Shown piece after piece: positions 2,813 through 63,271 of a DNA stretch of 64,000 nt (positions are counted from its first letter, which is position 1; each line of letters begins with the position of its first letter). The position numbers were made by a program, and so were the translations under genes. The DNA comes from Acutalibacteraceae bacterium. Its GTDB lineage: Bacteria > Bacillota > Clostridia > Oscillospirales > Acutalibacteraceae. The DNA is taken from contig JAZUEK010000037.1 of NCBI GenBank assembly GCA_045640165.1, positions 833 to 64,832 of the forward strand, written 5' to 3'. The notes below the pieces were generated by a model. It ran no database searches. It saw only the letters and a list, made by a program, of their open reading frames with translations, and was not told where the DNA came from.

Positions 2813-2813
2813 A

Positions 2814-4088: not shown

Positions 4089-4091
4089 CGT

Positions 4092-40518: not shown

Positions 40519-40533
40519 CTGTGACTCCCCTCC

Positions 40534-41511: not shown

Positions 41512-41584
41512 CCCGTTTCCTCCCTTATAACCCTAAATTTTTTGTGAATATATCTATCACACCGAATTGGTGGGATATTTGAAC

Positions 41585-42502: not shown

Positions 42503-42567
42503 CTGCCATCACTCCTTTAAGTGGATTACCGGGAGAGGAGAACTCCCCCCCTCCCGGGGATTGGTTC

Positions 42568-42741
42568 TTACGCATCCACGCCGTCGTACATGGCGAACAT
42601 CGGCAGGTACACGGACAACAGAACGAAGCAGACGAACACGGCGAGGAACACGATCATAATCGGTTCGATAAGCGCGGTCGCTTTGGTGGTCGCGAGGTCC
42701 ACCTCGTTATCGTAATATTCAGCGGTAATGCCGAGGGTGGT
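42568..42741 (-). other. In-frame continuation of pilC after the internal TAA (last conserved segment and final TM helix)
   Basis: Own translation: TTLGITAEYYDNEVDLATTKATALIEPIMIVFLAVFVCFVLLSVYLPMFAMYDGVDA-TAA. This is the canonical GspF/PilC C-terminus. Confidence 0.8.
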
Positions 42742-44849: not shown

Positions 44850-44866
44850 AGCGTTTCTCCTTTATG

Positions 44867-46628: not shown

Positions 46629-47354
46629 TCAGGGAGTCGACGTCTCCGGAACAGACACGGTCGATGTCGTTGCTTCAGCATTTGCCGGGCGGAAACTAAC
46701 TTCCACATCTTTTGTCATCGGTTTGGTGCCCGACGGCTCTGAAATCGTATAGGTAAGAGTAAACACACCGTCATCAAAAGCAACGTCAAAATCCTTTATA
46801 ATCAGCGTCGTATACACACCGTGACTAACAAGGAAGTGCGGCTTCAAGTTGTCATACTCAACCAACTTGCGCGTGTCGCCCTCTTTGGTGTATTCCTGGA
46901 ACTTCATCGCCAAACGATCTACGTATTTCGGTTCCGCCGTTGTGCCGACATTATACGGCTCCATCAGCAAAACGCCGCTTACAATACCATAATCATTGTT
47001 GGTAATAAAGCACGTGCCGCCATCCATCGTCAATTCGTTCTGGGTAACAAGCGCATTCTCCAACGTGGCAATTTGCTTCGGCAATCCTTCTTCCAAAGCA
47101 GTAACGTCTTTCTCCGTATACGGTTCAATCTCCGCATAGCGAAGCACGTCTTGCACCGCCGTATTGATGGTAGAAGCCAAAATATCACTTTCAGCAACAA
47201 ACGTGGCCTCACGCTGTACGCGCGCACCTACCGAAGCGCCCACCGACATCATCAAAGACATCATAACCACAACAAGGAGAGCTGCGAGCATTTCGACAAG
47301 CGTAAAACCTTTATTGGAATGTAATTTTTTGCGTAACTTCTTCAAAATACGCAT
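46629..47354 (-). CDS. Pilin-like protein with canonical prepilin N-terminus (minor pilin candidate)
   Basis: 241 aa from MRILKKLRKKLHSNKG|FTLVEMLAALLVVVMM. G is at -1, F at +1 and E at +5. A GGGGAGG RBS lies 8 nt upstream. Confidence 0.8.
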   Translation of the reverse strand: MRILKKLRKKLHSNKGFTLVEMLAALLVVVMMSLMMSVGASVGARVQREATFVAESDILASTINTAVQDVLRYAEIEPYTEKDVTALEEGLPKQIATLENALVTQNELTMDGGTCFITNNDYGIVSGVLLMEPYNVGTTAEPKYVDRLAMKFQEYTKEGDTRKLVEYDNLKPHFLVSHGVYTTLIIKDFDVAFDDGVFTLTYTISEPSGTKPMTKDVEVSFRPANAEATTSTVSVPETSTP

Positions 47355-47371: not shown

Positions 47372-47776
47372 TTAGGATTCCGGACAAAGAATATAGGTGC
47401 TGTAATCACCGTATTGTATCTCCGTCTCTTCATCGCTGATATTGCAATCCGTATAAGAAACGGCTATTTCTTTGGTATCTTTGACCGTTTTCTCATCCTC
47501 CGGCGTTTCCGGTTGATTGAAAAGAATCACCTTCACTTTGCCGTCGGACGCATCGCCGGCCGTTCCCGATAAAATGCTCATGCATTTTTGGTTGCGTGTA
47601 TCACGCTCGCGCGCTTGGCGGTTCAACTCCATTGCCGTTGTCGTTGCACCGGCAAGCAAAATGCTGGCAAACGTGGCAATCAAAATAGCAAACAAAGTTT
47701 CCACAAGCGTCTCGCCTGCGCGGCTTTTTAATTTCTTCAGCATTACTTTTTTCATACTCTCTCGCCGCCCTCTCAT
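47372..47776 (-). CDS. Small pilin-like protein with atypical processing site
   Basis: 134 aa: ...KKLKSRAG|ETLVETLFAILIATFASILLAG. G-1 and E+5 are present but +1 is Glu. Its start overlaps the upstream stop (ATGA). Confidence 0.6.
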   Translation of the reverse strand: MRGRRESMKKVMLKKLKSRAGETLVETLFAILIATFASILLAGATTTAMELNRQARERDTRNQKCMSILSGTAGDASDGKVKVILFNQPETPEDEKTVKDTKEIAVSYTDCNISDEETEIQYGDYSTYILCPES

Positions 47777-48855
47777 GAACCGCTTACATCACTGGCCACC
47801 GTCGAAGACTCCTCATCGGATTGTATCGGTTTCAATCCTTTCGAAATCTCAATATCATCGGTGTACCATGTCAAATACGTATCTACCACCGTGGTGCGCT
47901 TAATATGCTGAGCACCATCCCCACCAATAGGACAAGTTTCTTCAATCGGTTCGGACGAATAACCGGCAGGTGTCAACGATTCAAAGGAAGAGTGCGCCGT
48001 CAACGTCGCCGAGTACGTCGAAGAAAACCGAGAATCCACCGACATTCTGAAGGTAAGATTGGCCTTTTCATCCGTCGTCATCGTAACGTGAACCGTAGGA
48101 AGATTTTTAAGATGCAACGCATCATCATCGTCCGGCACAATGTCAAAAGAATACTCTAAATCATTAAATTTAAACGGAACAGCCCCATCGGTTACTTTCG
48201 CAAAAGCATCAATAAATGCTTTCAACGAATCCGTTGCCGTCATCACGCCGTTACGCGGATCAAATTTGCGAATACCCTCATCGCTCAACCGCTTGCTCAT
48301 GGCATACATAGCCACTTCTTCCAACGGTGCTTTCAAAAACACCGTATCATTATCCCCCACGCAGTTGAGGCCAAACGAAGCAAACGAACCCGTAGCCGGA
48401 GTAAAGTTGATAACGCCAGTCGTGCCGTTCACCACCACAGCCGGGCTATCGCTAACCAAACCGCCGGCATCGGTCCACAAACCGAAATAGTTGTGAGCCG
48501 ATGGGCAATCGCACAGCGAATACGAAATTTTCTCATCGCGCAAATGGAAGCCACCGATAGCACGCGCTGTCACACCGTCTACGTTTGTAATCTCTTTACG
48601 GTTATCCACGCGGTTCGCTCCGTTGATTTGGCCGAACATATCTTTAATGAGGTTTTGCGCCGATTGAATGGCGAAAAACGAGCGTTGCTCCTCTTTTTGC
48701 GCCAACGCACGCGAGGCGTTAACCGAAGCGGATGCCATCACGACGGATGCCACAAAAAAGCACATCAGAAAGAACGCCAGCGCCAACAAAATGGATGCAC
48801 CGGTGTTGCTCTTTAATTTTTTCGTGAATCTTTTCGTGAACGAGTTTGTTTTCAC
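47773..48855 (-). CDS. Large pilin-like protein lacking Glu+5 (GspK/PilX-like minor pilin candidate)
   Basis: 360 aa from the GTG at 48855 (AAAGGAGG RBS 7 nt upstream): VKTNSFTKRFTKKLKSNTG|ASILLALAFFLMCFFVASVVMA. The track's TTG start at 48972 has no RBS. Confidence 0.5.
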   Translation of the reverse strand: MKTNSFTKRFTKKLKSNTGASILLALAFFLMCFFVASVVMASASVNASRALAQKEEQRSFFAIQSAQNLIKDMFGQINGANRVDNRKEITNVDGVTARAIGGFHLRDEKISYSLCDCPSAHNYFGLWTDAGGLVSDSPAVVVNGTTGVINFTPATGSFASFGLNCVGDNDTVFLKAPLEEVAMYAMSKRLSDEGIRKFDPRNGVMTATDSLKAFIDAFAKVTDGAVPFKFNDLEYSFDIVPDDDDALHLKNLPTVHVTMTTDEKANLTFRMSVDSRFSSTYSATLTAHSSFESLTPAGYSSEPIEETCPIGGDGAQHIKRTTVVDTYLTWYTDDIEISKGLKPIQSDEESSTVASDVSGS

Positions 48856-48996
48856 AAAAAAGCCTCCTTTTCGCCGAAAGCGGCGGAGTTTTTCAAAAAA
48901 GTATCGTGTTTTTTCCAAAACAGATTGTCTTTTCAGGGATCTTGCCGAAACAGTTTCAGTAAAATCCGTCAAAAGACACGTCTGACACAGCGTTTT

Positions 48997-49052
48997 CGTT
49001 AAAACGCAAAAGGGAACTCTCTCCCCGCCCGCCCAAGCGGGCGGGGAGAGAG
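48997..49052 (-). terminator. Very strong hairpin plus T-tract immediately after the giant pilin gene
   Basis: Minus strand reads CTCTCTCCCCGCCCGCttggGCGGGCGGGGAGAGAG, a 16-bp perfect stem, followed by TTCCCTTTTGCGTTTT. Confidence 0.65.
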
Positions 49053-49080
49053 TATTTGCTATGGGGTTAGTTCGCGGGGG

Positions 49081-52000
49081 TTAGGAAATGGTGATGTACG
49101 GAATATTCGTATAGATAGCCGATTCAATTACAACCGTAGTAGCACCATTCACAGGCACCGTGTAAGTCAACGTAACGTTAACGCTGTTTCCACTCGGGGC
49201 ATTCACATCCGGAACCAGTTCCGTACCGCCGACTTTCACCGTTACAACGTCCGACCAGTTACTAACACTTTGCGGCTGATAGTAACCATCATAATGCACC
49301 ACAACCGTTGCGGTCGATCCGCTGATAGTCACGGACGTACTCGGCGTGATACGGTCACTAGGCAACGCACCCATTCCAGTATATTGACCAGTTTTATAGG
49401 ATGCGTCAATCGTCAGCGTACCGCCGCCAACCGGCTGAGCGTTGAACGTGGCGGAGACCGTCACGTCGCCTTTCGGCATCGTGAACGTGGTGGACGCGTT
49501 GGAAGCATTCGCCACCGTCGCGCCGGTCACGTTCCAGCCGCCGAAGGTGTAACCGGAAGCCGGGGTAGCGGTCAGGGTGATTTCGTCACCCTCCGCTACA
49601 TCGGTCGTCTGGCTGGCCGTAATCGTACCGCCGGTCACACTGCCGAGAGTCACTTTGTACTTCGGCGCTTGCGTGGTCGCCTGCGTCGGCGTGCTGCCAC
49701 CGCTGGTCACAGAAACATTCGCGATATCACAGTAGCCATCAAGCGTACCGTCAGTCTTACCGATTGTCAAGGTAACCGTGCCAGTGGAGGTCGCCGTATA
49801 GGTCGTCGTGAAGGTAGACGATGCCCCGCCCTCCATCTGTCCAAGAGAAGTTCCGCCCAAGGTGACCGGAACATGGAGTCCAGACTTCTCGCCGTCATAG
49901 TTAATCGTGACAGTATAGGTCGTACCAGCGACAACCGAGATATCCTGATTGATATTACCATCTTTCCACTTCGGCAACCGCGCCTTGCCACCTTCAATCG
50001 CGGCATTACCGGTAAACGTCCAATCAGTCGTACCGTTTGCGAAGTTGCCGTTCTTGATGAGGTTGCCCGTCACCGGCGGCTGCGTCGGATCGGTCACAAT
50101 CGGCTCGGTCGGCGTATCACCGCCCGCCGTGTTGTCAATAAGAGAGATGTTGTCAATGGTAAAGTCGATATCACTGCCGCCAATCTTCACAACATCCATA
50201 CCAGACACAGCCTCAAAGGTTACCGAATAGTGACCTGCCAAATCCGTCTTGAACTTATCGTTCGTACTGCTATTCACATACAGCGTTGCAGCAGAACCTT
50301 TAGTCATAGTAATGTCGCAAGAGAATGTGTAACTATGACCCACGATAAAGTTGACAGCTTGCGAAATACCGTATTTGTCACCGGAGTTATGACCATCCGA
50401 AATCGATGCCACGCCACCCGTAACCTCAAAGGTGGTGCAAGCTTTCTCCCAATCAGCTGTGCCGTTCGAGAAGTCGCCGTTCTTGATGAGATTGCCATCC
50501 GTCGGCGTCGGCTCGGTTGCGGCCGTCTCAAACTTCGCCTTGATGCTCACGTTGTTGTACGGCATCGTAAAGACCAACGGGTTATCCGTGTTATTCTGAT
50601 CATCATCCACCAGATACAAGTAATTGGTACCGTCGCCGTCAAGCTCCCAACCGACGAAGGTCTTGCCACTCTGCGTTGCCGGGGTAACAGTCACTGTCTT
50701 TCCGTAAGTACCGGAAGTCGGTTCTGCCGTACCGCCGTCCACCGTCACGGTGTAGGTGGCATCCTTATCGCCTTGATTAATGCTCGCAATCGGATCGGTC
50801 GTGTAGTTGTAAATCGCAAGTGTGCATTTCACTTCGCTAATACCCGGGACCGCGGAAGCGTTTGTATAGGTCACCGTGATGTCGCCGCTCAAATTCGACT
50901 TCGAATAGAATTCGAGTTTGATATCGTCCGCATAAGCGGTCGTCGCACCACTCAGCGTCGTCGCGGCGCGGCGAGCGTTACCGAACTTACCGCCGGTCTT
51001 CTCGAAGGTGACTTTCAGATACTGATTCGTGCCAATCGAATGGCTCGAAAGGAATTCGTTGAGCGTCTGAGTCGTCGTACCCGTGCTACCGGAGATGTTG
51101 GAACCGACCGTCATGGTCGCCACACCATTCGCATCACGGTTAACCGTGGACACGCTGTTCGACGTCCAGGACGCCACCGCCGTGGTGGGATCCGCCTTAT
51201 AGGTAGCGGTCACCGTCACAGCTTTCGCCGGCATCGTGAAGGATGCATTGGTCGCGGAAGTGGCGCTGGTAATCGTTACATCGCTACTGGTCCATTTATC
51301 GAACGTCCATCCAGGGTTCGCCGTAGCGGTCAAGGTGACGGTATCTTGGTAAGTCGCTTTAGCGACGCTGGCCGAAGCCGTACCCATCGTCGTGTCGTTG
51401 GACACCGTGATATCGTAGCTCTGCTGGTTGAACGTGGCGGAAACAGTGACATCCGCCGCCGGCACGGTCAACGTAGCCGGGTTGGCATTCGTGCTGTTCA
51501 GCGTACCGCCGGAGACCGACCAACCGGTGAACACGTAGCCGGTGTTCGGGATAGCGGTCAAGGTCACGGTATCGCCGTAGTTGGCGGTGGCCGAAGCCGC
51601 GTTGTTCACCTTGATCGTACCGTTCTGAACCGCATTGCAGGTCACGGTGTAGTTCACTTGCACGAAGGTCGCGGTCACCGTCACGGCTTTTGCCGGCATC
51701 GTGAAGGTTGCACCGTCCGCAGAAGAAGCGTTGGTGATCGTCACATCGCTACTGGTCCACTTGTCGAACTTATAGCCCGGTTCCGGATCGTTCGCCGTAA
51801 TGGAGACAGTCGTGCCCGCGACAAACTGCGTCGTGCCGCCGTCCACCGTACCTTTTTCAACGGTGACGCCGTAGGTCGGAACAACAGTCTCCTCGAAGTT
51901 CGCGGTGATTGCGACGTCGCCCGTGATGTTGGAAATCGTGGTGGTTGCGCTGCTCGCATTCGCCACCGTCGCACCGGTCACGGTCCAACTGCTGAAGGTG

Positions 52001-55000
52001 TAACCGTCGTTCGGGGTAGCCGTAAGCGTAACCTCGTCGCCAACGTTGACCACAGTGGTCTCGACGTTGTTACGAAGTACTTTCACAGTACCGGCCGCCG
52101 AAGTCGGATTCACAGTCACCGTCACGGTGTAATCAATCTTGTTAATGACCGCTCTCACCGTTACATCAGACGCCGGCATGGTGAAGCTGGCGCCAGACGG
52201 AGAAATGGCGTTGGTAATCGTAACGTCAGACGGCGAAACGATTTCCCAGTGATCAAACGTTTGACCCACTTGCACCACAGGATTGCTCAAGGTGACCGAG
52301 GCGCCCATTTTCGCTTTGGACAGATTTGCTGCGCCGTTTTGGACGGTAATCGAATACTCAATGTCCTCGAAAATGCCTTCGATATAAACGTCTTTGTCGC
52401 CCATCACAAAGGTATTGTCCGCATTCACGGTCACATCGCCGGAAATCACATTCCAGTGATCGAATTTTTTGCCGGCAGACGGTGTACCAGGCGTCAAATG
52501 AACCGTGACGCCTTGTTCAGCGGACGTCGCATCGGCAGTACCGCCGGTAACCGTGATACTATGAACCGTGTCATCCGAATCACCGCCGGACGGGATGTGA
52601 TCGCCCTTGACCAGGATGAAGTTGTCGATGACAGCCGTCTCCAAATCGTTGGATTCTCCGGCCACTTCAACGAAAATCTTGAAGTTCGTCAAATCCGAAG
52701 GAGTGGTAAACGTAATGTTACCGGTAGAAGTCAGAATCTCACTGTTGTTATTGTCTTTCTTGATTCTGACCGTGATCTTATCATTGGCGCTTCCCGACGT
52801 GGTCATATCCACGTGCAACGTGTATTCGGTCTTCGTTTCGAGAGGTTCGGTGAAGCTTGCAATGAGTTTCGGCGCGCGGTATGTCGGAATCGCAACATTC
52901 AGCTTACCGCCGGAAACGGTAAAGAATCCTGCATACTCACCGGATGCGGCAGGCTCTTGCGTCCAGCCAGTCATACCATTCGCAAAGTTGCCGTTCACGA
53001 TAAGGTTCGTGTAGGTCTCCGGCTCGCTCGTCGCGGACGTCGAAGTCTCGGAGGACGCGCTCGTCGAGGTCTCGCTCTCGGAAGTCTCGCCACCACCGGT
53101 AGAACCGGTATACAGCGTAACCGTAACACGGCCTTGGCCTCCGCCCAGCACCGAAGTCACATCCTGCAAGGTTGCAAGCAACGTGACTTCCTGATTGCCG
53201 TTGAACGTCAAGCCTTTATCCGTTTGGAAGACAATGGTTTTGTCATCCGCTCTGATAGCCGCTTTGTCAAACATAGCAAAGCATTTACTCTCCAAAGTCG
53301 TCTTCGCGGCAACAGCTCCACCAAACGTCGGGTTGTCAGTCAAAGACTCAAACACGATTTCAAGGTAAGCGTCCGAAGTAAACAACGAAGCATTTTGGAC
53401 TTTGGTAAGGAAGTTGGACCAGGACATCTCACCGGATTCCTTCGTCTCGACGATGGAATACGAACCAACGTTATTCCAATCCACACGCATCGTACCGGTT
53501 CCATTAGTCTCAAGGTGACCGCCGGTAATACCTTCCGTCGTCACCCACTGAGCAACCTTCGTGCGGTCGCCGGACGGAGTGGAAGTCTCAGAGGTCGTAG
53601 AAGATTCGGAGGACTCGGAAGTCGTTCCGGCATCTTTATACGTCGCCGCGACCTTCACGTTGGCATTGCCCATGACAAAGGTGGTCGTCGCGCTGTTCAC
53701 ATCAGCAAGCGTTACGCCGCCTTCGGTGACGGTCCATTTGTCGAACACTTTTCCGTTCGGGGCGGCATTCGCGGTCAAAGTGACCGTTGCGCCTGCAATC
53801 GCCGAAGTCGACGAAGCAGTACCATCCGTTACCGTAATGGTATGCGACACCGGATCACCGCCGCTCACCTCGGTCAAGACGATATCGTCAAACACCGGAG
53901 GTACCGTAAAGCTCTGCTCTTTCGGGATGCTGATATAAATCTCGAATTTAGTCAGATCTTCAATGGTGAAGGTAACCTCAGAACCGGAAGAAGTCAGTTT
54001 CGCATAGTCCTGATTTTCCTTGTTGCCCACACCATACCACACGCGCAGATCCACGCCCTTAGACGTAGTTGCCGTGCCGGGATTCAACGTGCCAATCGAC
54101 AGTTTGTAGGTCTTGCCGGCCTGCAGATTCGCGTTTTGCACAAAGCTGGCAACAAGTTTACCATCTTTATTGCCCTGATAGACCAACTGACCATTTGCGT
54201 TCACGGTCCACACATCGGGGTTGACCGCGTCGGTCCAGCCATCAAGACCGCCCTCAAAGTAACCGTTCTTAATCAGGTTATTGTCTTCGATAATCTCAAA
54301 TGCATTCGGCGTGATGAAATGGTCGCTGGAAGTATAGCCGGTTCTTTCCGCCCACGCTTCAATCTTATAGGTGCCGGGTTCAAGTTGTTCTGTCGTCGTG
54401 GCGCCCGTGTACTGCTGCGCCGCTTTCACGACATTACCATCAGCATCGAGGATTTGATACCAAACCGTCGCATCCGTGGTAGCACAATTGATGTTGAATC
54501 TCACACTTCCTCTGAACGGCGAAGTACCATTAACCGTAATCGACGGCGTCTCTACTGTCGGACGCTGCGTAACGTTAAACGTAATCGTGCCAGCTGTCAG
54601 TTTCTGACCAAATGCGGTCGCGGAAGCCGGCACCACAAAGGTCACTTTCAGACCGGAAACGTCCTCGGTCGGCGTACCACTCAAGGTAATCGTCACGCCA
54701 TCGCTACCATCCGCTCCGATGGTATCAATTCCCATACCGGCCGGCAAAGTGCCTTCGATCCAGTCAGCCACACTACCGAAATTGCTGGTAAAGGTGGTGT
54801 TGGAAATCTTCAAGTTCACCAAGTGCGGGTGACCATCAAGAGCGCTGGTGATAGGTTCACCACGATAGAACGTACGGTTCAAGTTGTCGCCGACAATCTC
54901 GGCTTTCGCCACTTTCGGGCCGATGACAAACGAACCAGCCGTTACAGCCGTACCGCCATTCTTCATCTTGTCACTCGGAACGGTAACCGTCACCGTGATA

Positions 55001-58000
55001 TTATTGGTCGGAAGAGCGGAAACAGAACCGGTAATATCAAAGCTCAACACACTTCCGTTCACCGTGCGCACCGTTGCAGCCAAATCACGAATAGATTCGT
55101 CTACACCGAGATGATCAAACCAACCGGTGATGTCATCGCCCACATTGACGCTGGCAAACTCGTCACCGTTCAAGGTGATCGAACCCACTTTCAAGTTGGG
55201 AGTGAAAGTTTCTCCGGCCGCCACGTCGAAATTGTCAAGTTGCAACGTTGCCGTGGTAGTGGTATCCAGAATTTCAACAAGGATAGAGGTATTCGGCGCC
55301 AACGAGCCCGCAACATCCGAGAACGAAACGCCTTTCATATAACCATACGCAGTGGAATCCTCATTCATCGACAGCGGACCGTTGATTTGATAAACAATGG
55401 TCTTACCATCAGCGCTGACAGAGCGTGCTTTTTCCTGCACGTGATGATTATCCACGCCGAGATAGGTATACATATCCACTTTCAAATTCTCCGCCGTCAA
55501 GGTGCCGAACGGCGCATCATTGTTGGTCAACGTAATGCGGATATACTGGCTATCCGTAAGAGCGCCATTCGCTTGGGCAAAGTCTTGCCATTTCTGGGTC
55601 TGACCATCTTTGGTCAAACCATCTTTCTGGTAGCTAAGATCCATATACGACTTGTCGTTAACGGAATCCGATTTCCACCAGTTCGACACCGTACCGCCGG
55701 AAAGTTCTCTCGTCTTTTTCTCCTCAGGCGGCACGTACTGCGTCGGTTCAGGCATCTCGGTAGCAGACGGCGAACGATCATAGATGCGTACATCCACAAA
55801 GAATTGATCTGCCAAGCCATCTTTGAGAACCTTGTTATCCGTCAAATCGAGCGCATTGCGATAGGTAAAGAAAGTACGCAGATTCATACTGCCGTACTCA
55901 GCAGCCTGCGAACGCTCGAGCGGACCGTAAATCTCATACGTAACCGTACGATTGGCGGTATCAATGCTCTTCGCTTTGATTTCCGAAAGGATAGTGCCTT
56001 CATTATAAGCGTAAGAGTCGCACGTAAAGGTAAAGTCGTCCAGTTCTGCATTCGCAAAGCCTGCCGGATAGGTCAACTTAATTTCCATGTACTGGCTCTC
56101 GGTCAGCGATTCATGCTGTTTCAAGAATTGCGTCCAGGTAATACCCGTGTCCACATCCTTGCAGGTACCGCCAAGGCTGGCGTTACGATACTGGTCTTGA
56201 CTGGAAGTCTGATAGGTAGGCGCCGACACGTCGCCCACTTGCGGCGAGCGGAACACATCCTGGAGCTTCGGATCCGACACATCCGCAGGCGTAGAACTAC
56301 TACTGCTGCTGGACTGACCATTGACTTTCTCCAGTTTCTTCACGCTGACGTTATCCACGTACAACGTGCCGTTCAAGGTCTTACCGGCAATCGGAGACTC
56401 CCATCTGATATACGCGTTGCTATCAAACGTCTTGCCAGCCGCGCCAAAGGTATACAGCACCGGCTGAGACCAAACAATTTTACCTTTGTTGTTGCCCTCT
56501 TTTTGCACTGCCTGCGCAACAACAACCTCATTGGCATAATAGAAATCATTCGTAATGATGTTGCCGGCAGCATCTTTGATGGGCTGAACCAAAACCGGCT
56601 GAAGTGCCAACGGCGCTTTCTGCTCTGTCCAGCTCTCATACGGATACGCGTTATTGGCATCTTTAATCGCATCCTGCGCATCCAACGTAAAGGTCGCCTC
56701 AACCTGGTAACCCTCACCCGTTTGCAGCGTATCCGGAAGCTTCCACGCACTACCGATATTCATTCTCAAAGATCCGTCGTCATTAAGAACAACTCTATTG
56801 GAGTGCTGTTTTTGACCGTCCGTCGCCGTGCCGGCACCGCACAAGTCGGTAATTTCACCGTTAACTGCTTTGGAGGAAACCAGAATGTTTTCGGCACCCG
56901 CTTCCTCAAAAGTCCACTCTTTCAGGAGTTTAAGCTGCATCGGCTGCTCCTGCGCAGTGGTTCCTGCACTACTGCCCGTCGTCGACTTACGCGTAGTGGT
57001 ATTGGTGGTAGAAGACGTGGTATTCGCGCGGTAGATGTTCACCATCAAACGGTTGATGCGGAACGGATCGTCGTTGCCCGGATAGTACTCTGCGTCTTTC
57101 TTGTTAAGCGAATCCCACAAAGAGCCATCCTTCAATCCACCTGCAGAGTGATAGTTGACAGCAAACCACAACTGCGGATCGTTCTCTTTCATGATGCCGG
57201 TATCCGCTACGTCAAACAGGAACTGATACACCTGTCCGTTGGTAAAGTGAATACCCTGCGCCTCATACGCCGCATCATTTTCATCGTCCCACACATTCTT
57301 AGTGGTATCTTTCAACAACGTATGGATAGCGCACTGGAATTTACCAACAGCTTCATAACGGTCATACTTAAATTCGGGTTCCACAATAATCTCGATATAG
57401 TCGCCCGCTTTTAAGTTGCCGATAGATGCCTGATATTTCATCTCTTTCAGCCAGGCATCCCAGTAATAACGGTAGTCGGTGTTATAAGTCGGGTCCACGC
57501 AGAAGTCCGCCCAGAACGTACCATTAAAGGCAGTTTCGTTCGAGAAAATCGTACCAGGCGGCAAAATCCAGTCGCCGAAGTGCGAGAAGCGATGGACATC
57601 TTTCCAACCGCTGACCGGATTGCCGTCGCTATCCAAAAGACCGTCTTGGCTCTCGAAGTATTCGTGAGAATTCACCGTCACCACTGCCGGGAACGGATAC
57701 CCACCGGCCAAGGTCTGGTCATAAGGCCAGCTATGGTCAAAGTCGGCAATACCAGACGTTCCGCGCAGCGCATACTCGCCGCCCGAGAACAGTTTCTTCA
57801 TTTCCGAATAGGTAAGGCCATACGGAACCGTCCTCGTTTCCGTATGCGTGGTTTCAAGGTCATTGCCGTTCGCATCGGTATCTTTCACCGTGATGCTATA
57901 CTCCCAATTGCGACCTTTATCCAACAATTTATCGGACAAGTTCCACGTCACGTTGCCATCGCCATCGGTGGAGCTAACCGCAAAATATCCATCTTCTTGC

Positions 58001-61000
58001 TTGGTAATAGCATCAACGAAGAAGTGGCTGTGAATAATCTTATCGGTTGCGCCGCCTGCCACGCCATAGAATTTAGACGAGTGGGAAGCATTGTTCTCAA
58101 ACTGGCAATAGTTGTAGCAATCGCACAGCACGCCACCGTTCTGATTGCCCACCAAGCCGGCAATTTGAGCATTCGTATTTCCGGTAGCATACCCTTTAAG
58201 CATACCGCCGGCATAACACATCGCCACAACGCCTTGGTTGTCGCCGGCAAAACCGCCAACGTAAACGTTGTCGGTCGCCACAGCATCAATAGTCTTGTTA
58301 ACCGCCGAACAATTCTGCACCTGACCGATAACCGTACCGGCAAGACCGCCCACGTGCGCTCTGTTCGCCGTGCTTTCGATAACGTAACCTGCCACGGCGC
58401 AGTTTTTCACCGTCGTCACGCCCTGCTGCAGATACGCCGACGGGCCCTCGTCACCGGTAGCGCCACCGGCACTCGCCGCCGCAGTAGTATATTTCACAAT
58501 GGAGATCGAAGTGCCCTCTTTCGTCCAAGTAGACAGATTTCCGCCGGTCAGTTGGAGATTAAAGTCTTTCCACGCTTTTTCGCCGGTATCTGCATTCGCG
58601 TGGAAATCGGCTTCGTGGAGCGTAAACGTCACCTGACTGCCGTCCTCGTTGATGATGGCATCAGACGTGTCGAGATAGACCACAACAGGATCCCAAGAGT
58701 GGTCTTGGGTTTGATAATACAACCGCGCACTCGTCACACCGGAAAAATCACCGGTCACAGTAACCACGGTATATTCTTCGTCCGAAGCAGGAATAAGGTT
58801 CGGCCACAAATCTCTCCATTGACCGTCCATAGACTGGTCACCGTTAAAGGTAAAGGTTCCCGCCGAAGAATCCAGCGACGACTTGTTATCTGCCGAGTCG
58901 AACCCATTCCGTTTCGCCTCAACAAGCTTACGGTCAGTGGACGTGCCGCCACCGGAAGCCGGCGCCACATACGCGCCATTTTTGACACGACCAACTAACG
59001 GTGCTACATCAGTAGCATCGCTGGTACGAATAAATGCCGTTCCGGTCTCTTGGCTCTCCGCCATCAAAATGACGTTCTGGACACAGGCGCCGTCAATCAC
59101 ACCGAACAAGCCGGTCGCCGACACACCCGTCGTCTCTTGGCAATAGTCATAAATACGGTTTCCGCCGCCGTCATACATGCCGGCAAACGGTTTTGCTTCC
59201 GTGCCAATCGGCACGTTACGATACGGATTATCGGCTTTTTGACCGGCACCGGACAGATCCAGCGCCAAGCCGATGTAATTCTTAGTGTATTTGCTGAAAT
59301 TGACGTGGCACTCCTGCTTAAACACAAAGTTCTTGTCCCAGTACCAATTTATACGGCCCAAAGCATTGAGCTGACGAGCAGAACGGATAATACTGGCAGA
59401 CGGCGTCGGCATATCCGCTGCCGTCGGGCAATACCGTTTCTCCGGATTGCTGCCGGGAATCACATCAAACGGATGATCCACCTGCTCCGGCTTCGGGTTA
59501 ATAACCGTTTTCGCAAGCACCGGGTTGTAGTAGAAAGTATAGTTCTCAAACACAGTAGCGCTGTTGTTATAGCCACTGAGAATCAGTTTCTGATAATAGG
59601 TCGCATTCGTCTGCTTCATCGCATTTTCATAGGCATCAGACATACCTTGCAGGTCATTGGGAAGCGGATAGATGAACACGTTCTCACTGACTTTGTTCGA
59701 ACCGGATGCCAAGACCATATTGCCATTGAAAATCTGCGTCAATTCGCCAAGCGTACCATTGGTGATTTTTTGGCCGTTTTCACCAATCTGGTACATATCC
59801 GTCAGACGATCGGAAGAAAGAATGGCATAGCCATCCTCTACGACCGTGAAATCGCCCTCCCACAAAGAGTTGTACACCCAAGTGTTCGCGGAATCATTGT
59901 CGCCTTTAAGACTGGTGCATACGTCGAAACCGTACGTGCCGTCTTCGTATTTTTCATAATAAACCATACAGGTCTGGACAGTGGATTCCACCGGCCAGTC
60001 ACCGTAGTGAGGAATGGTTTTCTGCGCATCATTCGAATCGACTTGTCCGTCTCCGTTGGTATCTTTGTTCTCTTTAAGCATCGGGAACGGGAACACGGTC
60101 TCACTGATGGTGTAAGGATGCGAATCATCCGCACTGTTGGCATAAGTGCCGTCGTCAGCATTTAACAACGCAAAATCGCCGAAAAGACGCGGCTGAGCGC
60201 CACTGGGATCCGCATCAAGGCTCTTGTTGTAGCCGTTCATCGTCAAATAGTTGCAAGCAACAAACGTAGAGTCGGATGCACTACCACCGATTTTACCAAC
60301 AAAACCATGCACATTATTTTTGGTGCTGTTGATATCGACAACTTTACCATAGGAATTGGCGTTGATGAAATCGCTATCCTGAGCAGCGCCAACAAAGCCG
60401 CCCACATTTTGCGTGCCTTGTACGTCGCCGGTCGCATAGCAGGGCGCTCCCGTCACACCAGTAACCGTTGCCCCTTTCATGTTACCAACCATACCACCGA
60501 CACGGCTACCACCAACGGTATCCTCGGAAGTATAGCAACGATTAATAGCGCCACTGTCCATATTACCCACAAGACCGCCGACGCTATCTTGACCTTGCAC
60601 CCAAACGGCGGCATAGGAATCCGCAAACGTACAGCCCTGGGCCTTGCCCACCATACCACCGACGTTGTTGGACTTTTCGGCATAAATCGAACGATCTCGC
60701 AGACGAGAAACGCCCTCAAAATACTTCACGCCCATCGGGTTTTCATCTCTCAGGCGCACTGCGCAGTTTTGGAACACCGTGCTCGTCGCACTACCGACCA
60801 GACCGCCCACGTGATCGCGACCCAACTCGTTATCCGCGGCACGCACTTTCGCATCCACCAAAGTAACGTTTTTGAAGGTCATGTTCTTCGTCGTAGCAAA
60901 CAAACCGATATTTGCCGTCGAACCCACAATGTCAAAATCGTACAAACCGAATCCGTTACCATCATAGGTCGCAGGTATATTTCCGCCCAAATCAATCGGT

Positions 61001-62622
61001 TTCATCGAAGAAATCGGGTTCTCGAGAGGCGTTCCGGGAACCAGCATTTCCGCATCGGTCCAGTAAACAACCGTGTCGATGTCACCGTCTTTGTTCGCCA
61101 TATAGGTATCCGAAGATTTGAAATAGATGTCCGCCGGACGGTCATCCATCACCACGTTACCGTCAGCATCCACCATTTCTTCGCCAGTCGTCGCATTAAT
61201 GCGCGGCGTTTCTTCGCGAACGCTCTGCTGCACAATGTTAAACTCCGAAATATGTTTGCTTTGAGCAACCGTGCCGTAATTGTTGAGGTTGCGCAGATGA
61301 CGCAGATAGGATACGTTCGCATTCAACACGCCACCGTCAGTCGTCTCCGCCGAAGCAAAGAGGCTATGTTGCGCCACAATATCCGAGCCGGGCTCAGTCA
61401 AGATCGTCAAGTCGCCCAGTTTGATTTCAAAGTTCGCGGTCACTTCCAAATCGCAACCGTTTTTGAACATCGCCAGGAACGCCGCCTTGTCATCACCGTC
61501 GCCACCGGAGATTGTGCTGTCATTCAAAATTGTCTCAATATTCGGCGTATCTCCGTCGCGATCCAAACTATCCAGCAAAATGTACGCAGTGGGGGTATAA
61601 TTCGTCACCGAGCCACATACATAGTGCGTCACCGTATCGCTATAATCCGCACGGGAATCCGCAGCCGTCAACTCCGCCACGCGCAACGGAATCGTCACGT
61701 GTGCCTGCGTTTTGGTATACGTATCTGTCGCCGTCAGCACCACTTCCGATTTACCGATGCCCTGCTGATACAGAGCAAAAGCCTCCGCCGACATCTCGCA
61801 AGAAACGCGGACGTACAAATCTTCTTTGTTGATAATTTCGCAAATCGGGCGGAACGGTTTGTTCTCGCTGGGTTTAAGCATATCCGTAGGATCACCGCGA
61901 TAATAACCAATCATAATTTCGCCGGAATCCGCCGGGAATTCCTTGCGGAACGAAGATTTGCGACCCTCTTTGGTTTCGTCAATCTCGCCGCCCATTTTGA
62001 TTTCATTAAGAGTATTTTCGTGAATATCTGCCGAAGTGAAGCCAGTTTTGGCATCAGAGTAAAACGCCGCATACACATCACCGGTGTAGGGGTTGAATTC
62101 GATATAATAATGTTGGTCAAGAGTAGTCGCCGCCACCGACGCCTCGGAAATCAAATACTTCGACGCAAAAACATTCTCGGCAATCGCAGCATCATCCGTT
62201 GCATCCGGATCGTGCATAATACCGTAGAAATTCATATAGTCGTCAGAATTCCACTTCTTCGCCCAATCCTGAGGCACCAAAGCAGTATAATCCTTAACAT
62301 CGCCGTCTTCCGTCACGACGTCTGTCAAATAACTGCAGTCCTTCACGCCGTCATCGCGCAAATCTTCCAGCAATTGATTCAACTCGCCCGTCGCTTTCAT
62401 AGACGTAAGACGACTTTGCGCCGCAAGATAGACGTCTTTGGCATAGCTATTAAGCCGCGCGAGTTCCAGGTTCTTCTGGATTTGCGCGACCGCAGGCACA
62501 GCAAGCCCGAACAAAATGGTCATGATGGCAAGAGTGATCATCATCTCCATCATGGTAAAACCGGTGCGTCTCTTAGGTTTCACGCTCCTCGGTCTGCTGT
62601 TCGCATAATTTGTATTTTTCAT
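49081..62622 (-). CDS. Giant (4,513 aa) modular type IV pilin-like adhesin
   Basis: - Start MKNTNY at 62622, with GGAGG 8 nt upstream.
- Prepilin leader and N-methylation motif KPKRRTG|FTMMEMMITLAIMTILFGLAVPAV at nt ~62485-62562.
- GLUG-motif clusters (VGGLVG, VGGMVG and VGGFVG) at ~60250-60830 and ~58000-58390.
- Four CBM4/9-like modules starting NLI(K/V)NG.F..G...W at ~53870-54290, 52600-53010, 50130-50500 and 49700-50075.
- Nine InlB-B-repeat/Flg_new-like modules at 53630-53850, 51195-52566 (six copies), 50530-50760 and 49440-49665.
- Ser/Thr-rich linkers.
- No LPXTG motif, no dockerin and no internal stop. Confidence 0.9.
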   Translation of the reverse strand: MKNTNYANSRPRSVKPKRRTGFTMMEMMITLAIMTILFGLAVPAVAQIQKNLELARLNSYAKDVYLAAQSRLTSMKATGELNQLLEDLRDDGVKDCSYLTDVVTEDGDVKDYTALVPQDWAKKWNSDDYMNFYGIMHDPDATDDAAIAENVFASKYLISEASVAATTLDQHYYIEFNPYTGDVYAAFYSDAKTGFTSADIHENTLNEIKMGGEIDETKEGRKSSFRKEFPADSGEIMIGYYRGDPTDMLKPSENKPFRPICEIINKEDLYVRVSCEMSAEAFALYQQGIGKSEVVLTATDTYTKTQAHVTIPLRVAELTAADSRADYSDTVTHYVCGSVTNYTPTAYILLDSLDRDGDTPNIETILNDSTISGGDGDDKAAFLAMFKNGCDLEVTANFEIKLGDLTILTEPGSDIVAQHSLFASAETTDGGVLNANVSYLRHLRNLNNYGTVAQSKHISEFNIVQQSVREETPRINATTGEEMVDADGNVVMDDRPADIYFKSSDTYMANKDGDIDTVVYWTDAEMLVPGTPLENPISSMKPIDLGGNIPATYDGNGFGLYDFDIVGSTANIGLFATTKNMTFKNVTLVDAKVRAADNELGRDHVGGLVGSATSTVFQNCAVRLRDENPMGVKYFEGVSRLRDRSIYAEKSNNVGGMVGKAQGCTFADSYAAVWVQGQDSVGGLVGNMDSGAINRCYTSEDTVGGSRVGGMVGNMKGATVTGVTGAPCYATGDVQGTQNVGGFVGAAQDSDFINANSYGKVVDINSTKNNVHGFVGKIGGSASDSTFVACNYLTMNGYNKSLDADPSGAQPRLFGDFALLNADDGTYANSADDSHPYTISETVFPFPMLKENKDTNGDGQVDSNDAQKTIPHYGDWPVESTVQTCMVYYEKYEDGTYGFDVCTSLKGDNDSANTWVYNSLWEGDFTVVEDGYAILSSDRLTDMYQIGENGQKITNGTLGELTQIFNGNMVLASGSNKVSENVFIYPLPNDLQGMSDAYENAMKQTNATYYQKLILSGYNNSATVFENYTFYYNPVLAKTVINPKPEQVDHPFDVIPGSNPEKRYCPTAADMPTPSASIIRSARQLNALGRINWYWDKNFVFKQECHVNFSKYTKNYIGLALDLSGAGQKADNPYRNVPIGTEAKPFAGMYDGGGNRIYDYCQETTGVSATGLFGVIDGACVQNVILMAESQETGTAFIRTSDATDVAPLVGRVKNGAYVAPASGGGTSTDRKLVEAKRNGFDSADNKSSLDSSAGTFTFNGDQSMDGQWRDLWPNLIPASDEEYTVVTVTGDFSGVTSARLYYQTQDHSWDPVVVYLDTSDAIINEDGSQVTFTLHEADFHANADTGEKAWKDFNLQLTGGNLSTWTKEGTSISIVKYTTAAASAGGATGDEGPSAYLQQGVTTVKNCAVAGYVIESTANRAHVGGLAGTVIGQVQNCSAVNKTIDAVATDNVYVGGFAGDNQGVVAMCYAGGMLKGYATGNTNAQIAGLVGNQNGGVLCDCYNYCQFENNASHSSKFYGVAGGATDKIIHSHFFVDAITKQEDGYFAVSSTDGDGNVTWNLSDKLLDKGRNWEYSITVKDTDANGNDLETTHTETRTVPYGLTYSEMKKLFSGGEYALRGTSGIADFDHSWPYDQTLAGGYPFPAVVTVNSHEYFESQDGLLDSDGNPVSGWKDVHRFSHFGDWILPPGTIFSNETAFNGTFWADFCVDPTYNTDYRYYWDAWLKEMKYQASIGNLKAGDYIEIIVEPEFKYDRYEAVGKFQCAIHTLLKDTTKNVWDDENDAAYEAQGIHFTNGQVYQFLFDVADTGIMKENDPQLWFAVNYHSAGGLKDGSLWDSLNKKDAEYYPGNDDPFRINRLMVNIYRANTTSSTTNTTTRKSTTGSSAGTTAQEQPMQLKLLKEWTFEEAGAENILVSSKAVNGEITDLCGAGTATDGQKQHSNRVVLNDDGSLRMNIGSAWKLPDTLQTGEGYQVEATFTLDAQDAIKDANNAYPYESWTEQKAPLALQPVLVQPIKDAAGNIITNDFYYANEVVVAQAVQKEGNNKGKIVWSQPVLYTFGAAGKTFDSNAYIRWESPIAGKTLNGTLYVDNVSVKKLEKVNGQSSSSSSSTPADVSDPKLQDVFRSPQVGDVSAPTYQTSSQDQYRNASLGGTCKDVDTGITWTQFLKQHESLTESQYMEIKLTYPAGFANAELDDFTFTCDSYAYNEGTILSEIKAKSIDTANRTVTYEIYGPLERSQAAEYGSMNLRTFFTYRNALDLTDNKVLKDGLADQFFVDVRIYDRSPSATEMPEPTQYVPPEEKKTRELSGGTVSNWWKSDSVNDKSYMDLSYQKDGLTKDGQTQKWQDFAQANGALTDSQYIRITLTNNDAPFGTLTAENLKVDMYTYLGVDNHHVQEKARSVSADGKTIVYQINGPLSMNEDSTAYGYMKGVSFSDVAGSLAPNTSILVEILDTTTTATLQLDNFDVAAGETFTPNLKVGSITLNGDEFASVNVGDDITGWFDHLGVDESIRDLAATVRTVNGSVLSFDITGSVSALPTNNITVTVTVPSDKMKNGGTAVTAGSFVIGPKVAKAEIVGDNLNRTFYRGEPITSALDGHPHLVNLKISNTTFTSNFGSVADWIEGTLPAGMGIDTIGADGSDGVTITLSGTPTEDVSGLKVTFVVPASATAFGQKLTAGTITFNVTQRPTVETPSITVNGTSPFRGSVRFNINCATTDATVWYQILDADGNVVKAAQQYTGATTTEQLEPGTYKIEAWAERTGYTSSDHFITPNAFEIIEDNNLIKNGYFEGGLDGWTDAVNPDVWTVNANGQLVYQGNKDGKLVASFVQNANLQAGKTYKLSIGTLNPGTATTSKGVDLRVWYGVGNKENQDYAKLTSSGSEVTFTIEDLTKFEIYISIPKEQSFTVPPVFDDIVLTEVSGGDPVSHTITVTDGTASSTSAIAGATVTLTANAAPNGKVFDKWTVTEGGVTLADVNSATTTFVMGNANVKVAATYKDAGTTSESSESSTTSETSTPSGDRTKVAQWVTTEGITGGHLETNGTGTMRVDWNNVGSYSIVETKESGEMSWSNFLTKVQNASLFTSDAYLEIVFESLTDNPTFGGAVAAKTTLESKCFAMFDKAAIRADDKTIVFQTDKGLTFNGNQEVTLLATLQDVTSVLGGGQGRVTVTLYTGSTGGGETSESETSTSASSETSTSATSEPETYTNLIVNGNFANGMTGWTQEPAASGEYAGFFTVSGGKLNVAIPTYRAPKLIASFTEPLETKTEYTLHVDMTTSGSANDKITVRIKKDNNNSEILTSTGNITFTTPSDLTNFKIFVEVAGESNDLETAVIDNFILVKGDHIPSGGDSDDTVHSITVTGGTADATSAEQGVTVHLTPGTPSAGKKFDHWNVISGDVTVNADNTFVMGDKDVYIEGIFEDIEYSITVQNGAANLSKAKMGASVTLSNPVVQVGQTFDHWEIVSPSDVTITNAISPSGASFTMPASDVTVRAVINKIDYTVTVTVNPTSAAGTVKVLRNNVETTVVNVGDEVTLTATPNDGYTFSSWTVTGATVANASSATTTISNITGDVAITANFEETVVPTYGVTVEKGTVDGGTTQFVAGTTVSITANDPEPGYKFDKWTSSDVTITNASSADGATFTMPAKAVTVTATFVQVNYTVTCNAVQNGTIKVNNAASATANYGDTVTLTAIPNTGYVFTGWSVSGGTLNSTNANPATLTVPAADVTVSATFNQQSYDITVSNDTTMGTASASVAKATYQDTVTLTATANPGWTFDKWTSSDVTITSATSATNASFTMPAKAVTVTATYKADPTTAVASWTSNSVSTVNRDANGVATMTVGSNISGSTGTTTQTLNEFLSSHSIGTNQYLKVTFEKTGGKFGNARRAATTLSGATTAYADDIKLEFYSKSNLSGDITVTYTNASAVPGISEVKCTLAIYNYTTDPIASINQGDKDATYTVTVDGGTAEPTSGTYGKTVTVTPATQSGKTFVGWELDGDGTNYLYLVDDDQNNTDNPLVFTMPYNNVSIKAKFETAATEPTPTDGNLIKNGDFSNGTADWEKACTTFEVTGGVASISDGHNSGDKYGISQAVNFIVGHSYTFSCDITMTKGSAATLYVNSSTNDKFKTDLAGHYSVTFEAVSGMDVVKIGGSDIDFTIDNISLIDNTAGGDTPTEPIVTDPTQPPVTGNLIKNGNFANGTTDWTFTGNAAIEGGKARLPKWKDGNINQDISVVAGTTYTVTINYDGEKSGLHVPVTLGGTSLGQMEGGASSTFTTTYTATSTGTVTLTIGKTDGTLDGYCDIANVSVTSGGSTPTQATTQAPKYKVTLGSVTGGTITASQTTDVAEGDEITLTATPASGYTFGGWNVTGATVANASNASTTFTMPKGDVTVSATFNAQPVGGGTLTIDASYKTGQYTGMGALPSDRITPSTSVTISGSTATVVVHYDGYYQPQSVSNWSDVVTVKVGGTELVPDVNAPSGNSVNVTLTYTVPVNGATTVVIESAIYTNIPYITIS

Positions 62623-63133
62623 ACTCTCGACCTCCCACAAAGTGTCGTGGATAATGCAATAATATAATATGGATATAAAAGAGTGTATAGGGTGGTATAC
62701 CCACCCACATATCTACAAAGCGGAAATCCGCTTCGTTTTCCCGTAAAAATTTGTACTTTTGGGGTTAGTCACGGCTATCTTCGCCACATTTTTTCTCCCA
62801 AAGCACGACGAAAAAGCAAAATTTGCGGTTTTTCCGCAAAAATTTGCATTTTTCTACCCTTTTTCGTATTGTCTTTTTCGGCTTTTCCTTTTCACAAAAA
62901 GTCGTTTTTTTGGTAGATAACAACAAAACGCGTCTACAAATTTGCGTCCGCGTTGGTCATTTTGCACAAAGTAGGTGCTATCTACCCACCTATATAATAG
63001 AACAATTCACCAGAAATGTCAACGAAAAATTTGAATTTTTCGACCGCTTTTTTCGCCTTTCCAAAAATTTCCGTCAAAATCACACGCCTTGTAACATTTT
63101 CACAAAAAATTCAAAAATTATCAAAAAAAGTCG

Positions 63134-63162
63134 TTGCATTTTGGTCGAAAATGTAGTATACT
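63134..63162 (+). promoter_or_regulatory. Putative sigma-A promoter of the GreA-C-domain gene
   Basis: TTGCAT, a 17-nt spacer, then TATACT. This lies about 110 nt upstream of the ATG at 63272. Confidence 0.45.
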
Positions 63163-63271
63163 CTATCTATATACTATTCTCGGAGCGGTCTATGACCGTT
63201 AACCGTGGCTTTTTATCTCAGCTTTTTCAATCACCGGTTTGACCGGACTATTTGCGGAGGCGAAACCAATT

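Follow-up and report, generated by a model that had tools for sequence, protein, structure and literature searches.

The DNA analysed here is a stretch of 64,000 nucleotides (nt) from an Acutalibacteraceae bacterium (contig JAZUEK010000037.1; hereafter the window), and its minus strand contains a giant open reading frame (ORF) at 49081-62622 that encodes a protein of 4,513 amino acids (aa) with a pilin head. We propose, with somewhat more confidence than doubt, that this gut bacterium, a monoderm, makes a genuine type IV minor pilin of an extreme modular kind. The giant would most likely act as a glycan-binding adhesin at the filament tip, accompanied there by three minor pilins encoded beside it. 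The carbohydrate-binding module (CBM) 4/9-like and InlB-B-repeat modules and the gene context point to such an adhesin function, displayed by or anchored through the pilus machinery. A conserved N-terminal/GLUG core takes up the first ~1,700 aa of the giant, and the remainder is a chain of CBM4/9-like, InlB-B-repeat-like and unassigned beta modules that is specific to the lineage. The alpha-1 helix is the only membrane-interacting element in its 4,513 residues. Raynaud et al. 2021 (PMC8179133) define a modular pilin by an N-terminal IPR012902 motif together with at least one domain whose occurrence is not restricted to pilus biology. The giant falls within this definition, with Glug, CBM_4_9 and Flg_new_2/Flg_new above cut-off, and a sequence-only reading of the window had already called it an extreme modular pilin. 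The protein singled out as 'most extreme' in the 2021 survey has 860 aa (PMC8179133).

The giant ORF starts with an ATG at 62622, 8 nt after a GGGAGG ribosome-binding site, and its stop codon occupies 49081-49083. The mechanically called ORF opens further upstream, with an in-frame TTG at 62640. The frame of 4,513 codons has one stop and is intact over 13.5 kb, as the sequence-only reading had claimed. The mature protein has a mass of ~480 kDa, within the range of 0.45-0.5 MDa estimated earlier, with a pI of 4.5 and a Thr- and Gly-rich composition. Is such a long frame real? Four loci from metagenome-assembled genomes (MAGs) begin with the same head; three of them are labelled Acutalibacteraceae and one is a 'Clostridia' MAG from horse faeces. 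In L001, L002 and L004, the frame stays open for at least 3,870 aa, up to the end of the locus sequence. Three orthologues are collinear with the giant over 3,000-4,200 aa: P0003 (4,446 aa) is 99% identical to the giant over the first 560 aa, and P0004 (4,490 aa) and P0005 (4,338 aa) are 52% and 45% identical to it, respectively. An assembly chimera or a frameshift is excluded because these collinear orthologues occur in independent assemblies. A chance ORF is also excluded because orthologues exist and the DNA repeats within the gene are short, with no more than 81% identity. The nearest genome relatives are Acutalibacteraceae MAGs. Exact-sequence look-ups for the giant protein and for PilB returned no record. 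The GC content of the gene region is approximately that of its flanks, and the idea that the gene is a horizontally acquired island was dropped for this reason.

The head of the giant (aa 1-78; 62389-62622, minus strand) combines a class III signal peptide with a pilin-type helix. The N-terminus reads MKNTNYANSRPRSVKPKRRTG/FTMMEMMITLAIMTILFGLAVPAV, where the slash marks the predicted prepilin cleavage site between G21 and F22. The residues around this site, KPKRRTG/FTMMEMMITLAIMTILFGLAVPAV, form a short basic leader end with Gly at -1, followed by Phe at +1, Glu at +5 and a hydrophobic stretch of ~20 residues, and the complete leader has 21 residues. Pfam N_methyl (PF07963) matches the whole protein with 24.4 bits and the first 520 aa with 27.6 bits (cut-off 21.2), and NCBIfam TIGR02532 matches with 19.9 bits (cut-off 16.3). 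Thus, the prepilin signal peptide is present as the sequence-only reading had described it. The AlphaFold2 model places the alpha-1 helix at aa 24-78 with a predicted local distance difference test (pLDDT) score of 91-96. A phmmer search of the whole giant protein against PDB sequences gave nothing significant. A profile built from 30 family N-termini matches more than 20 solved pilins, each from mature residue 1. The best match is Geobacter PilA (1.7e-11), and Dichelobacter (D. nodosus) FimA is matched over residues 1-131 (8.6e-7). Further solved structures matched by the profile include Streptococcus sanguinis PilE1, Escherichia coli PpdD and GspG.

The helix is also the sole recognisable anchoring device, in line with the earlier claim. 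The Kyte-Doolittle profile contains a single hydrophobic segment (aa 20-50) in the entire protein, which has no LPxTG motif, no C-terminal anchor and no Sec-type signal peptide. The Dockerin_1 match is sub-threshold (14.6 bits against 22.9) with only one Ca-binding loop, and a role of the giant as a cellulosomal component was rejected given that no dockerin is above cut-off. The helix is followed by a family-conserved globular region (aa 79-560; 60943-62388, minus strand), which is modelled as an alpha/beta structure to approximately aa 255 and then as one or more immunoglobulin (Ig)-like beta-sandwiches, with a pLDDT of 77-85. The AlphaFold2 model of aa 1-255 (pLDDT 85) shows beta-strands after the helix, and a Foldseek search with the 560-aa model gave weak Ig-like matches only.

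The conserved core continues with a GLUG-rich segment (aa 580-1690; 57553-60885, minus strand), which is delineated by Pfam Glug, self-similarity and the family consensus. GLUG region 1 extends from aa 580 to approximately aa 880, a conserved spacer occupies aa 880-1100, and GLUG region 2 covers aa ~1100-1690. The first region contains a Pfam Glug match at aa ~736-761 with 28.5 bits (cut-off 20.5). The match in the second region, at aa ~1420, is weaker and stays below the same cut-off with 17.5 bits. The two regions resemble each other in self-comparison (aa 582-697 and aa 1404-1503), and the two GLUG clusters reported earlier can both be recognised, the second less strongly. Each region is followed by an H[YF]GDW(P) motif: HYGDW at aa 872 (window ~60007) and HFGDW at aa 1681 (~57580). 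This motif is kept in the family consensus as 'PF...HYGDWP'.

A second segment (aa 1690-2780; 54283-57555, minus strand) connects the core to the terminal array. It begins with two modules (aa 1690-2110) for which segment scans matched no family. A repeated module of ~100-170 aa, also without a family match, is present in four copies, two of which belong to this segment (aa 2130-2300 and 2311-2468) and two to the array (aa 3051-3159 and 3838-3933). Ig-like modules follow at aa 2480-2780, including a SpaA-like stretch. The sequence-only reading had seen a chitobiase C-terminal-like stretch here, and this assignment is not supported; excised aa ~2700-2790 gave no CHB_HEX_C match, and the best match was a SpaA-type Ig-like domain that is itself sub-threshold (20.9 bits; cut-off 23.1), beside other hints of Ig-like folds.

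The terminal passenger array (aa 2782-4513; 49084-54279, minus strand) is composed of CBM4/9-like modules, Flg_new_2 modules, the two copies of the repeated module, Ser/Thr-rich linkers between several of the modules and a C-terminal module (aa 4400-4513), to which the segment scan assigned no family. Four CBM4/9-like modules are found (aa 2782-2914, 3206-3335, 4044-4153 and 4187-4309), in agreement with the earlier count of at least four, and each of them, when excised, has CBM_4_9 (PF02018) as its best Pfam family (23.3, 31.5, 26.8 and 22.2 bits, respectively; cut-off 25.9). The earlier count of nine InlB-B-repeat-like modules is exact, with Flg_new_2 modules at aa 2922-2998, six between aa 3349 and 3811, and one each at aa 3952-4034 and 4322-4396.

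The array is also the part of the giant in which closely related strains diverge. A comparison with the conspecific P0003 gives ~99% identity over aa 1-2300 (96-100% in blocks of 100 residues). The identity drops to 17-66% in the blocks aa 2301-2500, 2801-3000, 3201-3400, 3601-3800 and 4001-4513 (window 49081-55722). These low-identity blocks largely overlap the CBM-like modules and one copy of the repeated module, which is the pattern expected if strains swap binding modules. The alignment thus suggests that binding modules are exchanged between strains.

How widespread are pilins of this type? An exhaustive phmmer search, in which aa 1-560 of the giant were compared with 1.84 billion cluster representatives, found 1,441 matches at E<1e-3, of which 192 had E<1e-10, and word-indexed homologue searches returned only 2, 1 and 19 matches. 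Lengths and heads were counted for the best 150 of the 192 representatives. At least 1,000 aa are present in 105 of these, at least 2,000 in 34, at least 3,000 in 10 and at least 4,000 in 4. All 150 have a head of the type G/A followed by F-T-x-x-E (135 by the strict pattern and 15 on inspection). The similarity typically spans aa 15-280 of the giant, beyond the helix, and reaches approximately aa 450 in many members, and in family alignments a common consensus continues across the two GLUG regions and the two HYGDWP motifs. In single-sequence phmmer comparisons with 96 long members, aa 560-1100 are common to 36-37, and beyond aa 1700 similarity exists only with the three close orthologues. 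Pfam scans of 16 long members detected N_methyl in 14, Glug in 8, Flg_new in 3, Flg_new_2 in 2, Peptidase_M26_N in 2 and CBM_4_9 in 1. The named sources include Bacillota, Clostridia, Lachnospiraceae, Erysipelotrichia and Atopobiaceae, and the only annotations attached to the members are generic ones, for example 'prepilin-type N-terminal cleavage/methylation domain-containing protein' and 'type II secretion system protein'. The giant thus belongs to a large family of pilin-headed proteins, and it lies at the upper end of their size range of 1,300-4,500 aa.

The giant gene is located in a type IV pilus cluster, and this location is a family trait. On the same strand, it is followed by three pilin-like genes, pilB, pilT, pilC, pilD, pilM, pilN and pilO, and then by a convergent gpsA. 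This order, which the sequence-only reading had given from the three pilin-like genes to pilO, is confirmed by Pfam and NCBIfam matches and kept in independent assemblies. The contigs of P0004 and P0005 carry the giant, genes for 333-366 aa, 134 aa and 213-220 aa, and pilB, as in the window. The P0004 contig stops inside pilB, and the P0005 contigs continue through pilT, pilC (intact, 402 aa), pilD, pilM, pilN and pilO to gpsA. The gene order in L007, L008 and L009 is identical to that of the window. The earlier proposal to look for pilin-headed ORFs of more than 1,000 aa beside pilus genes is answered by the length counts above and by 13 related loci with enough flanking sequence, as pilus genes adjoin the large pilin in all 13. 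Nine of them (L007-L009, L012 and L014-L018) have a large pilin of 1,346-4,490 aa, three small pilin-like genes and then pilB onward; the block from the large pilin to pilB-T-C is kept in L012 and L014-L018. In three loci (L010, L011 and L013), the machinery comes first and the large pilin last. L019, a short contig, shows pilin-like neighbours and no machinery genes.

The three small genes between the giant and pilB differ in how closely they resemble known prepilins. Pilin-like gene 2 (47773-48858, minus strand; ~360 aa) has the head KSNTG/ASILLALAFF, with no Glu at +5, and gave no Pfam match and no PDB match by sequence or profile search. It is conserved in L007, L009, L012 and all family loci. 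Pilin-like gene 3 (47372-47776, minus strand; 134 aa; SRAG/ETLVE) shows weak sub-threshold ComGE/ComGF matches. Its predicted +1 residue is Glu instead of Phe or Met, an unusual prepilin site that does not vary among four orthologues, one of them distant. Pilin-like gene 4 (46629-47354, minus strand; ~241 aa; NKG/FTLVE) is conserved and exceeds the cut-offs of N_methyl (with 23.2 bits) and TIGR02532 (with 22.1 bits). Neither the giant nor its three neighbours have an above-threshold match to the known minor-pilin families GspH/I/J/K, PilV/W/X/FimU or ComGD-GG beyond the N-terminal helix, and the ComGC/GD/GE/GF profiles give sub-threshold N-terminal matches of 14-24 bits against cut-offs of 49-80. 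The four-gene pilin arrangement is only analogous to known minor-pilin sets.

What is established about type IV filaments, together with the modular pilins of S. sanguinis (PMC8179133), leads us to infer the following mechanism. The giant would enter the membrane in an N-in/C-out orientation via Sec, with the passenger crossing unfolded, and PilD would then cut off the 21-residue leader at G21/F22. The giant and the three co-encoded minor pilins would form a priming complex that ends at the filament tip, and polymerisation by PilB would drive this complex through the peptidoglycan. In a monoderm without an outer-membrane secretin, there would plausibly be no size limit on the passenger. All family members with a named source organism are monoderms (Bacillota and one Coriobacteriia family), which suggests that the absence of an outer-membrane secretin permits such passengers. 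The passenger (~480 kDa and probably more than 100 nm long when extended) would bind polysaccharide or glycan ligands through its CBM-like and B-repeat array. PilT retraction could then draw the cell to the substrate, and the swapping of binding modules between strains would reset the specificity.

Several observations weigh against a tip-displayed minor pilin. To our knowledge, there is no account of an assembly motor that extracts a 0.5-MDa subunit from the membrane. Two of the four CBM-like modules score below the Pfam cut-off. A Foldseek search of the 255-aa model against PDB gave no match at E<0.001, with the Pseudomonas aeruginosa pilin ranked 8th at E ~1, so that the N-terminal model does not demonstrate the canonical globular fold of pilins. 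In addition, PilC ends after 344 residues at an in-frame TAA (codon 345 of 402; 42742-42744), and the pilus machine may be inactive in the strain sequenced owing to this nonsense codon. The frame beyond the TAA continues with the missing C-terminus. The position is GAA in the conspecific contig L020, which encodes an identical PilT, and GAG in the orthologue L007, both with an intact PilC of 402 aa. The TAA is thus specific to this assembly and reflects either one G-to-T nonsense change or an error in the consensus. Stop-codon reassignment was considered for this TAA and rejected, given that TAA also ends the pilC frame a few codons on and that the conspecific contig has GAA.

The last two points concern transcription and the major pilin. 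A terminator-like hairpin of 17 bp (13 GC pairs) with a T tract (49016-49053, minus strand) begins 28 nt after the giant stop codon, and it is kept in structure with a different sequence in L007 (23045-23078) and L009 (23501-23534). The giant gene is therefore probably terminated or attenuated separately, and the hairpin may uncouple it from the downstream pilin and machinery genes. The sequence-only reading had called the giant the first gene of the pilus operon; its first position stands, and a single transcription unit is doubtful. Furthermore, the cluster lacks a major pilin gene. In the window and close orthologues, the gap between pilC and pilD is only ~70 nt (42502-42573), and no gene is present there in the window, L007, L008 or L020. 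No class III motif was found in the 64-kb window beyond the giant and the three pilin-like genes, which leaves no candidate major pilin in it. Distant family clusters (L010, L012, L013, L016 and L017) have a gene for 127-143 aa between pilC and pilD. In L012 (12587-13009), L016 (20295-20690) and L017 (20215-20625), it encodes a pilin of 132-140 aa, which is likely the major pilin.

Is the giant polymerised at all? These features can be accommodated if the pilin head is a membrane anchor only. The giant would then be processed by PilD and never polymerised. Its alpha-1 helix would keep it tethered in the cytoplasmic membrane, perhaps in a short stub with the three small pilins, and its length of more than 100 nm would bring the binding modules across the wall. 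In function, it would resemble the archaeal bindosome proteins. The missing major pilin gene, the separate terminator-like hairpin and the lack of a canonical pilin globular fold by Foldseek all favour such an anchor, and the conserved core of ~1,700 aa could serve as its stalk. However, the strict family-wide linkage to PilB, PilT and PilMNO is hard to explain without fibre assembly or retraction, and a major pilin may be encoded elsewhere in the genome, given that our view covers 64 kb. The four-pilin block also mirrors known priming complexes, such as GspH-K and PilV/W/X/FimU. We consider an anchor without polymerisation a possible but distinctly less probable explanation than a tip-displayed minor pilin.

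A more far-reaching idea is that monoderm gut bacteria possess a class of giant surface proteins, dependent on pili and so far unrecognised, which could be called 'megapilins'. In these proteins, a conserved pilin-GLUG core would carry mosaic binding arrays of up to 0.5 MDa that are specific to lineage and strain. In the Acutalibacteraceae clade, where the cluster lacks a major pilin, the four-pilin complex would then perhaps be the whole device, with PilB and PilT reeling a single 'fishing line' and with no classical fibre. We regard this idea as speculative and rather unlikely as it stands.

Could the passenger instead be an enzyme or a released factor, such as an M26-type protease or a glycan-degrading protein, with the machinery working like the secretion piston of a type II system? 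M26 immunoglobulin A1 (IgA1) proteases typically contain GLUG motifs, two distant family members match Peptidase_M26_N, and the pilin-GLUG architecture has been interpreted as a predicted peptidase (Raynaud et al., PMC8179133). However, the giant protein contains no HExxH motif anywhere, whole-protein and segment scans detected neither Peptidase_M26 nor any other catalytic Pfam or NCBIfam domain, and every recognisable module is a binding or structural beta module. An enzymatic or released passenger is therefore very improbable. Finally, an assembly chimera or a decaying pseudogene in a defunct pilus locus, which the pilC nonsense codon and the apparently metagenome-type contig might suggest, is scarcely credible in view of the frame intact over 13.5 kb, the collinear intact orthologues in at least six independent assemblies, the intact pilC with GAA in place of TAA in the conspecific contig, the absence of long DNA repeats and the flank-like GC content.

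As a modular minor pilin, the giant can be compared with several known systems. The catalogue of Raynaud et al. 2021 lists 264 modular-pilin architectures, including pilin-GLUG (IPR011493, 6 proteins), pilin-CBM4_9 (IPR003305, 7 proteins) and pilin-List_Bact_rpt/InlB-B-repeat, and makes no mention of sizes like that of the giant (PMC8179133). The modular pilins of S. sanguinis have been proposed to be tip-exposed adhesins (PMC8179133). Like the giant, S. sanguinis PilB, with a von Willebrand factor A (vWA) module, and PilC, with a lectin module, combine a pilin module with non-pilus modules and are minor pilins of a monoderm cluster that are predicted to act as tip adhesins. PilB and PilC carry one grafted module each, whereas the giant has 4,513 aa and more than 30 modules. 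PilY1/PilC tip adhesins of type IVa pili (~1,000-1,200 aa) are likewise modular, are presented by a four-minor-pilin complex and have variable N-terminal effector modules (PMC8179133). However, PilY1, whose defining domain is the IPR008707 beta-propeller, does not belong to the pilins, and the giant is attached by its own pilin head and has no propeller, with no match to IPR008707/PF05567 in whole-protein or segment scans.

The giant also resembles CofB/TcpB of the type IVb pili of enterotoxigenic E. coli (ETEC) and Vibrio cholerae, ComZ of Thermus with its beta-solenoid, and GspK, each of which is the largest minor pilin of a priming or tip complex and has extra beta-rich domains, either added to its pilin module or placed within it. 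The giant shares no sequence or profile similarity with these proteins beyond the N-terminal helix. They have ~300-550 aa and must pass an outer-membrane secretin, whereas the giant is approximately ten times larger and belongs to a monoderm. Archaeal sugar-binding proteins with class III signal peptides, as in the Sulfolobus bindosome, show that a prepilin-type signal can anchor non-filament carbohydrate-binding proteins at the cell surface. The bindosome proteins differ from the giant in that they are archaeal, of ordinary size and processed by PibD, with their own assembly system. Giant Gram-positive adhesins, such as Ebh and SasG-type beads-on-a-string proteins, are anchored by LPXTG/sortase or a C-terminal transmembrane segment. 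They share with the giant the size class, acidic Thr/Gly-rich arrays of beta modules, Ser/Thr linkers and a likely rod-like shape. The giant differs from them in its N-terminal pilin-helix anchor and its position inside a pilus cluster, and it has neither their signal peptide nor their anchors. Full-text literature searches found no description of pilins that are thousands of residues long or of a GLUG-core pilin family, and the conserved family core of ~1,700 aa and the strain-level module mosaicism of the giant are not described in Raynaud et al. 2021 (PMC8179133). Thus, its size class, conserved core and mosaic passenger are undescribed features of a protein that still falls within the modular-pilin definition.

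The machinery genes extend over 39170-46564 on the minus strand and were assigned by Pfam and NCBIfam matches: pilB (46564-44867), pilT (44849-43773), pilC (43776-42573), pilD (42502-41585; A24_N_bact and Peptidase_A24), pilM (41511-40534), pilN (40518-39769) and pilO (39772-39170). On the opposite side, the giant gene is preceded by an unusually long AT-rich intergenic stretch (62623-63250, ~600 nt) with several promoter-like sites. A consensus scan placed one of these, TTGACA-17-TATTAT (62994-63022, minus strand), ~370 nt upstream of the ORF, with agreement at 11 of 12 positions. A small hairpin lies at 62822-62840 in the same stretch. Riboswitches for cyclic di-guanosine monophosphate (c-di-GMP) are known upstream of clostridial pilin genes, and an Rfam scan of the 5' region of the giant gene, in which such a riboswitch was sought, matched no family. 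Elsewhere in the window, the minus strand encodes a 962-aa protein (28296-31184) with a signal peptide and, as read from its translation, two N-terminal dockerin-like Ca-binding repeats (DANKDGTINMKD and DTNGDGAVNMKD). The same protein carries a long array of YD/RHS-like 'YDENGN' repeats. Its dockerin-like repeats hint at cohesin-dockerin display in this organism.

In the usual view, a type IV pilin is a small subunit of ~100-200 aa, and the modular pilins recognised to date have one or a few domains grafted on. The family described here has dozens of members of 2,000-4,500 aa, a size class beyond current models, and none of the models of membrane extraction, minor-pilin priming and wall passage has been built for a subunit so large. 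The modules without a family assignment, which amount to well over 1,500 residues in the giant, form a stock of folds that await characterisation. Together with their apparent exchange at the strain level, the CBM-like modules point to a tunable device for attachment to fibres or glycans in uncultured gut Clostridia. Thus, the family offers a concrete and conserved system for asking whether a pilus motor handles a 0.5-MDa subunit.

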